Below, piece by piece: positions 32,646-35,421 of a stretch of 64,000 nucleotides of DNA. The stretch's first letter is position 1; every line of letters starts with the position of its first letter. The DNA is from Eledone cirrhosa (lineage: Eukaryota). A model generated the notes under the pieces. It worked only from the letters and a program-made list of their open reading frames with translations. It was not told the DNA's origin and did no database searches. Where the stretch lies: positions 9,052,001 to 9,116,000 of the forward strand of contig OZ024760.1 in the NCBI GenBank assembly GCA_964016885.1, read 5' to 3'. A program made the position numbers and the translations under genes.

Positions 32646-35421
32646 AGTGACCAGTGATACAGGACAATATTACATACCTAGAGCTGTACCATAACCTGCA
32701 GTGGCTAAAGAGCCAGTGTTACAGTGAGTGACCAGTGATACAGGACAATATTACATACCTAGAGCTGTACCATAACCTGCAGTGGCTAAAGAGCCAGTGT
32801 TACAGTGAGTGACCAATGATACAGGACAATATTACATACCTAGAGCTGTACCATAACCTGCAGTGGCTAAAGAGCCAGTGTTACAGTGAGTGACCAATGA
32901 TACAGGACAATATTACATACCTAGAGCTGTACCATAACCTGCAGTGGCTAAAGAGCCAGTGTTACAGTGAGTGACCAGTGATACAGGACAATATTACATA
33001 CCTAGAGCTGTACCATAACCTGCAGTGGCTAAAGAGCCAGTGTTACAGTGAGTGACCAGTGATACAGGACAATATTACATACCTAGAGCTGTACCATAAC
33101 CTGCAGTGGCTAAAGAGCCAGTGTTACAGTGAGTGACCAATGATACAGGACAGTATTACATACCTAGAGCTGTACCATAACCTGCAGTGGCTAAAGAGCC
33201 AGTGTTACAGTGAGTGACCAGTGATACAGGACAATATTACATACCTAGAGCTGTACCATAACCTGCAGTGGCTAAAGAGCCAGTGTTACAGTGAGTGACC
33301 AGTGATACAGGACAATATTACATACCTAGAGCTGTACCATAACCTGCAGTGGCTAAAGAGCCAGTGTTACAGTGAGTGACCAATGATACAGGACAATATT
33401 ACATACCTAGAGCTGTACCATAACCTGCAGTGGCTAAAGAGCCAGTGTTACAGTGAGTGACCAATGATACAGGACAATATTACATACCTAGAGCTGTACC
33501 ATAACCTGCAGTGGCTAAAGAGCCAGTGTTACAGTGAGTGACCAATGATACAGGACAATATTACATACCTAGAGCTGTACCATAACCTGCAGTGGCTAAA
33601 GAGCCAGTGTTACAGTGAGTGACCAATGATACAGGACAATATTACATACCTAGAGCTGTACCATAACCTGCAGTGGCTAAAGAGCCAGTGTTACAGTGAG
33701 TGACCAGTGATACAGGACAATATTACATACCTAGAGCTGTACCATAACCTGCAGTGGCTAAAGAGCCAGTGTTACAGTGAGTGACCAATGATACAGGACA
33801 ATATTACATACCTAGAGCTGTACCATAACCTGCAGTGGCTAAAGAGCCAGTGTTACAGTGAGTGACCAGTGATACAGGACAATATTACATACCTAGAGCT
33901 GTACCATAACCTGCAGTGGCTAAAGAGCCAGTGTTACAGTGAGTGACCAATGATACAGGACAATATTACATACCTAGAGCTGTACCATAACCTGCAGTGG
34001 CTAAAGAGCCAGTGTTACAGTGAGTGACCAATGATACAGGACAATATTACATACCTAGAGCTGTACCATAACCTGCAGTGGCTAAAGAGCCAGTGTTACA
34101 GTGAGTGACCAGTGATACAGGACAATATTACATACCTAGAGCTGTACCATAACCTGCAGTGGCTAAAGAGCCAGTGTTACAGTGAGTGACCAATGATACA
34201 GGACAATATTACATACCTAGAGCTGTACCATAACCTGCAGTGGCTAAAGAGCCAGTGTTACAGTGAGTGACCAATGATACAGGACAATATTACATACCTA
34301 GAGCTGTACCATAACCTGCAGTGGCTAAAGAGCCAGTGTTACAGTGAGTGACCAGTGATACAGGACAATATTACATACCTAGAGCTGTACCATAACCTGC
34401 AGTGGCTAAAGAGCCAGTGTTACAGTGAGTGACCAGTGATACAGGACAATATTACATACCTAGAGCTGTACCATAACCTGCAGTGGCTAAAGAGCCAGTG
34501 TTACAGTGAGTGACCAGTGATACAGGACAATATTACATACCTAGAGCTGTACCATAACCTGCAGTGGCTAAAGAGCCAGTGTTACAGTGAGTGACCAATG
34601 ATACAGGACAATATTACATACCTAGAGCTGTACCATAACCTGCAGTGGCTAAAGAGCCAGTGTTACAGTGAGTGACCAATGATACAGGACAATATTACAT
34701 ACCTAGAGCTGTACCATAACCTGCAGTGGCTAAAGAGCCAGTGTTACGGTGAGTGACCAGTGATACAGGACAATATTACATACCTAGAGCTGTACCATAA
34801 CCTGCAGTGGCTAAAGAGCCAGTGTTACAGTGAGTGACCAATGATACAGGACAATATTACATACCTAGAGCTGTACCATAACCTGCAGTGGCTAAAGAGC
34901 CAGTGTTACAGTGAGTGACCAATGATACAGGACAATATTACATACCTAGAGCTGTACCATAACCTGCAGTGGCTAAAGAGCCAGTGTTACAGTGAGTGAC
35001 CAGTGATACAGGACAATATTACATACCTAGAGCTGTACCATAACCTGCAGTGGCTAAAGAGCCAGTGTTACAGTGAGTGACCAGTGATACAGGACAGTAT
35101 TACATACCTAGAGCTGTACCATAACCTGCAGTGGCTAAAGAGCCAGTGTTACAGTGAGTGACCAGTGATACAGGACAATATTACATACCTAGAGCTGTAC
35201 CATAACCTGCAGTGGCTAAAGAGCCAGTGTTACAGTGAGTGACCAGTGATACAGGACAATATTACATACCTAGAGCTGTACCATAACCTGCAGTGGCTAA
35301 AGAGCCAGTGTTACAGTGAGTGACCAGTGATACAGGACAGTATTACATACCTAGAGCTGTACCATAACCTGCAGTGGCTAAAGAGCCAGTGTTACAGTGA
35401 GTGACCAATGATACAGGACAG
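32646..35421 (-). repeat. 81-bp tandem array (34 units) of the MRI1 exon 3 3' end plus 5' splice site
   Basis: Unit on minus: tgtcctgtatca(c/t)tggtcactcactgtaacactggctctttagccactgcaggttatggtacagctctag|gtatgtaatat. Exact 81-bp register from 32681 to 35354. Confidence 0.98.

Follow-up and report, generated by a model that had tools for sequence, protein, structure and literature searches.

An 81-bp minisatellite reiterates the exon 3 splice donor of MRI1 in the octopod Eledone cirrhosa

In the human genes F7, CBS, IFI6, LMNB2 and PDGF, minisatellites have been described that begin with a unit straddling an exon-intron boundary (PMC1557585). Use of the authentic donor only is reported for F7 (37-bp unit, 5-9 copies), LMNB2 (100 bp, 10-15 copies) and PDGF (81 bp, 16-18 copies), and in IFI6, with 25 pseudo-sites, and CBS, with 15-20 copies, the next two pseudo-donors are recorded as being used as well (PMC1557585). 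F7 minigenes are described as selecting the most upstream working donor, with the number of units, from 1 to 12, having no effect on the choice (PMC1557585). Comparable "mirages" are reported in the lancelet genes for Adh3, globins, troponin C and PGBD5, where splicing is said to stay normal (PMC3087553, PMC3902484). Repeats of this kind can be defined by a head-to-tail unit of about 10-160 bp, by its spanning a real, used boundary, by reiteration of the splice signal, by mRNA made through the authentic site and by length polymorphism. An array in MRI1 of Eledone cirrhosa is assigned here to the same kind on four of these five features, since it is a minisatellite, spans a used boundary, reiterates the donor and accompanies authentic-site mRNA, the last as seen in one run at depth 11.

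The window, meaning the whole 64,000-nt stretch of DNA analyzed, holds the methionine-salvage gene MRI1 on its minus strand as an intact gene of five exons with GT-AG introns and one open frame of 370 codons. The coding part of exon 1 runs from the ATG (40913..41050) and is followed by exon 2 (36548..36792), exon 3 (35351..35523; 173 nt, with the THCNTG motif), exon 4 (27998..28399; IF-2B domain) and the coding part of exon 5 (27103..27255), after which comes the stop codon. All five were located by tblastn with MRI1 of Octopus bimaculoides, which is also the top protein match (80%), together with exon edges (exons 1, 2, 4 and 5), TIGR00512 (exons 1, 2 and 4), Pfam (exon 4), alignment (exon 3) and spliced contigs of a run termed X1 (exons 2 to 5). 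In a genome-wide profile search TIGR00512 matched four exons and the repeat units, at this locus only; a Pfam search with exon 3 alone returned no family. The cysteine of THCNTG, which the earlier note on this DNA had named as catalytic, aligns to human MRI1 Cys168, whose replacement by serine is reported to abolish activity (PMC13524455). Judged from its sequence, the gene is a full-length MRI1/MtnA orthologue (TIGR00512, IF-2B family) with the catalytic Cys. Genome searches for a second MRI1 copy or a processed pseudogene, considered as a source of the spliced contigs, found neither. Intron 4 holds interspersed repeats. The MRI1 model of O. vulgaris (P0122, 484 aa) ends in a C-terminal 10-aa tandem repeat, possibly a gene model read into a repeat; this repeat accounts for the extra length of the model and is unrelated to the 81-bp array.

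The array itself (32646..35420, minus strand; 34.3 copies with 99% matches by TRF) has a unit made of the last 70 nt of MRI1 exon 3 and the first 11 nt of intron 3, so that its first copy begins within the exon proper (35351-35420) and continues through the authentic donor into the 11 intronic nt (35340..35350), the donor being the point where the spliced contig leaves the exon. On the minus strand 34 GTATGTAAT donors follow one another from 35350 to 32677 at a constant spacing of 81, one true and 33 decoys, and a 21-nt exon fragment lies past the last of them. TRF and this spacing bear out the 34-copy, head-to-tail amplification of exon end and donor that had been proposed from the sequence. 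The proposal that all the decoys are identical stands for the donor 9-mer, AG/GTATGT being kept in 33/33 further units and the splice signal thus reiterated within the intron, and fails for the units as wholes, which vary at three sites. With the donor G numbered 0, site 10 in the intronic part is C in 3/33 full units, site 23 is a synonymous Leu change (TTG/CTG; C in 17/33 units) and site 35 is C in 1/33. The site-23 variants are interspersed in a random-looking order (17 runs versus 17.5 expected). At site 35 the copied Cys codon becomes Arg; the decoy concerned is unit 8 (34703-34783, minus strand), and conversion or unequal crossover carrying this variant into the first copy could inactivate MRI1.

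A genome-wide DNA search gave 34 matches to the unit, all at the MRI1 locus. As the earlier note had observed, the unit amounts to 27 codons, and an in-frame TAA follows each decoy donor, with the result that a transcript spliced from a distal donor would read G-M-stop and terminate at codon 188. Its arithmetic for 27- and 18-nt microexons also holds on the gene model, where both would stay in frame. The combination of whole codons and a stop was tried as a sign of design and rejected, because a length divisible by three has a 1-in-3 chance and an AARS2-like array elsewhere in this genome likewise has whole codons and an in-frame stop. Folding of three units revealed no special RNA structure (z +1.41; 182/200 shuffles fold as well). 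Most of the rest of intron 3 is filled by an unrelated 25-bp minisatellite (28434..32503; 163 copies, 4,070 bp), which stops 34 nt short of the exon 4 acceptor, and the two arrays together bring tandem repeat to 97% of the intron. At the 3′ end of intron 2, an AT/AC microsatellite of about 700 bp (35524..36240, minus strand; sequence and TRF) reaches almost to the exon 3 acceptor, where the pyrimidine tract is weak.

Four runs were compared with 35260-35530, one of them spliced (X1) and three unspliced and DNA-like (X2-X4), the latter from one sample that may be the assembly's own source and is therefore not an independent individual. A 111-nt contig (81 + 30, that is, an 81-bp loop at word size 31) is present in 3/3 unspliced runs. 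The contig reaches a depth of 110.7 in X2, where the flank has 6.45 (17.2x), and of 221.7 in X3, where the flank has 9.88 (22.4x), and X4 shows the loop contig but no flank. Because the loop lies at 17-22 times flank depth, a multi-copy array is supported and the sequence is not an assembly artefact. That the assembler created the array, or much inflated its copy number, is very improbable. Both ratios, from the one sample, fall short of the 26.4 expected from the assembled array, as inflation would have it, yet a second allele of shorter length, or noise given a flank depth of 6-10x, may also explain the shortfall, and the interspersed variant units do not look cloned.

With 34 equal donors behind exon 3, which does the spliceosome take? 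Run X1, for which no RNA entry is on record, was judged to be RNA because its contigs are spliced (exon 2-3-4 and exon 4-5). Its exon 3 contig, 230 nt long at depth 11.2, covers 35349-35527 with letters of exon 4 and exon 2 as loose ends; it is unbroken both at the entry to the array and at the donor, and it exits exon 3 at 35351 to join exon 4. The unbroken contig carries the argument, as a junction in short contigs cannot separate the first donor from a distal one. Nine splicing cases were simulated on the word graph and compared with the X1 contig ends. Use of a distal donor, or read-through of the donor, breaks the contig inside exon 3, which was not seen. With a microexon following exon 3 the contig stops 0 or 2 nt into exon 4, and with exon 2 spliced onto a microexon it stops at 1 or 9 nt, whereas 28 nt were observed. 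Since each of these forms would have broken or shortened the contig and none did, neither the donor competition proposed earlier nor the use of 18/27-nt microexons finds support in this run. Regular mRNA is made through the authentic site, and no decoy product appears in this one run at depth 11, a shallow library whose contigs drop rare forms, so that minor use may go unseen; the reading presumes that the X1 animal carries the same array. The RAD-seq runs X5 and X6 had no reads on MRI1 exons 4-5.

The same contig points to another form. The main mRNA alone would give a contig spanning the whole coding sequence, and instead the contig stops at 230 nt, having taken in exactly 29 nt of exon 2 and 28 nt of exon 4. 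Two of the nine simulated cases reproduce this length with these ends, namely skipping of exon 3, and read-through of the intron 2 donor together with the intron 3 acceptor. Against acceptor read-through, X1 depth is 0 at 28414-28433. In the adjoining bin (28368-28413; mean depth 17.7) the residual after the two known contigs is what a further, third contig covering 30 nt at 3.9-4.1x would add. By arithmetic on contig ends and depth in one library, with the junction itself not displayed, an exon 2-4 junction would amount to about 26% (4.0/(4.0 + 11.2)); an alternative exon could yield the same breakpoints. In the skipped form translation would end at codon 135, about 380 nt upstream of the last junction, which makes it an NMD-type target. 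For such a target a share of about 26% is large, and the skipping could be a price paid for the array. Of the earlier suggestion that array length tunes MRI1 through NMD, the NMD-type by-product may thus exist, and nothing links it to the array or to its length.

The array is best explained as a by-product of tandem-repeat growth that is likely tolerated, since splicing goes to the first donor and NMD disposes of rare errors. We put the probability of this reading at roughly 0.7. Its origin likely lies in slippage or unequal crossing-over, in a genome prone to repeats. By analogy with known cases, an initial duplication of the exon end and 11 intronic nt would have been followed by expansion and homogenization, as in any minisatellite. 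The first donor would then win as it does in human F7, in our proposal because it is met first in the 5′-to-3′ direction and completes the exon whose definition starts at the upstream acceptor. NMD would clear the rare products of distal donors, which would end at codon 188, and so reduce the cost of carrying the array.

Two readings give the array a greater role. Equal donors and copies of the exon end might blur exon definition and so promote skipping of exon 3, the frameshifted product being an NMD substrate and copy number lowering MRI1 output. We regard this as unlikely, even with contig ends that an exon 2-to-4 junction reproduces, a sole competing 230-nt model that the zero depth at 28414-28433 speaks against, a residual of about 4.0x that translates into 26%, and the report that skipping in F7 rose as proximal donors were inactivated (PMC1557585). 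The junction is, as stated, an arithmetical one from a single library for which an alternative exon could account; extra units are described as having no effect on splicing of wild-type F7 (PMC1557585); and the AT/AC microsatellite abutting the exon 3 acceptor offers a rival cause, comparable to the (TG)n tract reported to promote exon skipping in CFTR (PMC10078293). That tract and the ABCA7 VNTR are counted among splicing-regulating tandem repeats (spl-TR), a class marked by repeat length that tracks the splicing outcome from individual to individual (PMC10078293). Somewhat less credible still is the model of the earlier note, in which distal donors, 18/27-nt microexons or recursive splicing come into play often enough to tune MRI1. 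The sequence permits all these forms, and the two nearest pseudo-donors of IFI6 and CBS offer a reported precedent (PMC1557585), but the X1 contig is neither broken nor shortened and the internal acceptors of the units have short pyrimidine tracts. Recursive-splicing intermediates would not survive into contigs of the X1 type.

Junction arrays, taken over small samples, appear to recur in this octopod. TRF returned 105 rows in the window. In the neighboring gene, identified as POLD2 by weak Pfam matches and an open frame over ten exons, junction repeats occur at 2/10 exons. Four acceptor copies precede its last exon (57450-57640, plus strand), with decoy copies of acceptor plus exon start at 57460, 57507 and 57564 and the genuine last exon at 57633; the decoy at 57460, the first of them, has an in-frame stop. 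A degenerate donor repeat past another exon (47207-47355, plus strand) adds three extra TGTACAG/GT donors and a further one that has lost its GT. Beyond the window, a blind sample of 79 loci drawn from four family searches (6/6, 13/13, 30/32 and 30/48 matches) contained a junction array at 1/79 exon loci (95% interval 0.03-6.9%), a rough figure in that matches only approximate exon edges and a few loci were long or intronless. This array, 93-bp x 9, spans the acceptor before an alanyl-tRNA synthetase exon (L021; G000:C9:13846498-13849632, minus strand), probably of the mitochondrial, AARS2-like gene, and its unit equals 31 codons, the TAG of the acceptor being in frame.

Several other features were recorded along the way. 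A 21-bp array at 51553-52417 (plus strand) begins right at a POLD2 exon donor without evident exon content. MRI1 (41050, minus strand) and POLD2 (about 42800, plus strand) stand head to head about 1.8 kb apart, and the gap holds a 48-bp x 10 array and interspersed repeats. The first coding exon of a G-protein gamma-like gene lies at 58565-58714 (plus strand; weak GGL match), and a 13.7-kb degenerate TA-rich tandem tract with a GC content of 9-25% at 9149-22851. Among the sampled loci, two proteasome ATPase genes each seem to form diverged local pairs with a spacing of 35-40 kb (G000:C22:6.84-6.88 Mb and C2:77.59-77.63 Mb; pairs L063/L072, L067/L069, L071/L076 and L066/L077).

Taken alone, the MRI1 array is one more exon-boundary minisatellite, of a type for which humans and lancelets already provide examples. 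Recurrence of such arrays bears on gene annotation, in which they may pass for tandem exons, and on how intron gain is modeled. As 34 equal donors behind an essential exon, the array is a test case for the F7 first-donor rule in a mollusc, and the three variant sites inside the units let long reads name the donor used. More speculatively, copy number could act as a dial on a housekeeping enzyme, more copies of the exon end and donor giving more exon 3 skipping and NMD, at about a quarter of transcripts in the one library, and the process would extend to such arrays at roughly 1% of the exons of this octopod; we hold this to be a long shot, and if true it would turn junction minisatellites into a source of expression variation that is genome-wide and mutates fast. 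A literature search for an octopus report of such arrays found none, which is weak evidence as the search was small.

How does this locus compare with those already described? Closest in build are PDGF intron 4 (81-bp unit, 16-18 copies) and LMNB2 (100-bp unit, 10-15 copies), where a long unit likewise spans the boundary, the donor is reiterated in the intron and the authentic donor alone is reported used, as in the MRI1 array (PMC1557585); the 81-bp length shared with PDGF is a coincidence. Unlike these two, the MRI1 array has 34 copies, lies in a mollusc, is 86% exon by unit and copies a catalytic motif. The 37-bp VNTR of F7 intron 7 resembles it in that the first unit spans the donor, identical pseudo-donors follow and the most upstream is used, and differs in having 4 exon nt per unit, 5-9 copies, demonstrated polymorphism and minigene tests, as reported (PMC1557585). 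IFI6 (6-16) intron 2, with its 25 pseudo-sites, and the 31-bp VNTR of CBS intron 13, with 15-20 copies, share the many reiterated donors and are, as described, the closest precedent for donor competition (PMC1557585), whereas use of the kind reported for their two nearest pseudo-donors was not seen for MRI1 in the one spliced run. The lancelet mirages (Adh3, globins BflGb6/BflGb9, troponin C and PGBD5) are also invertebrate boundary repeats, rich in exon sequence and found in several genes, and are reported at donors or acceptors with normal splicing (PMC3087553, PMC3902484). From these the MRI1 array is set apart by its phylum, its higher copy number and its higher identity (99% versus the 81-100% given for BflGb6).
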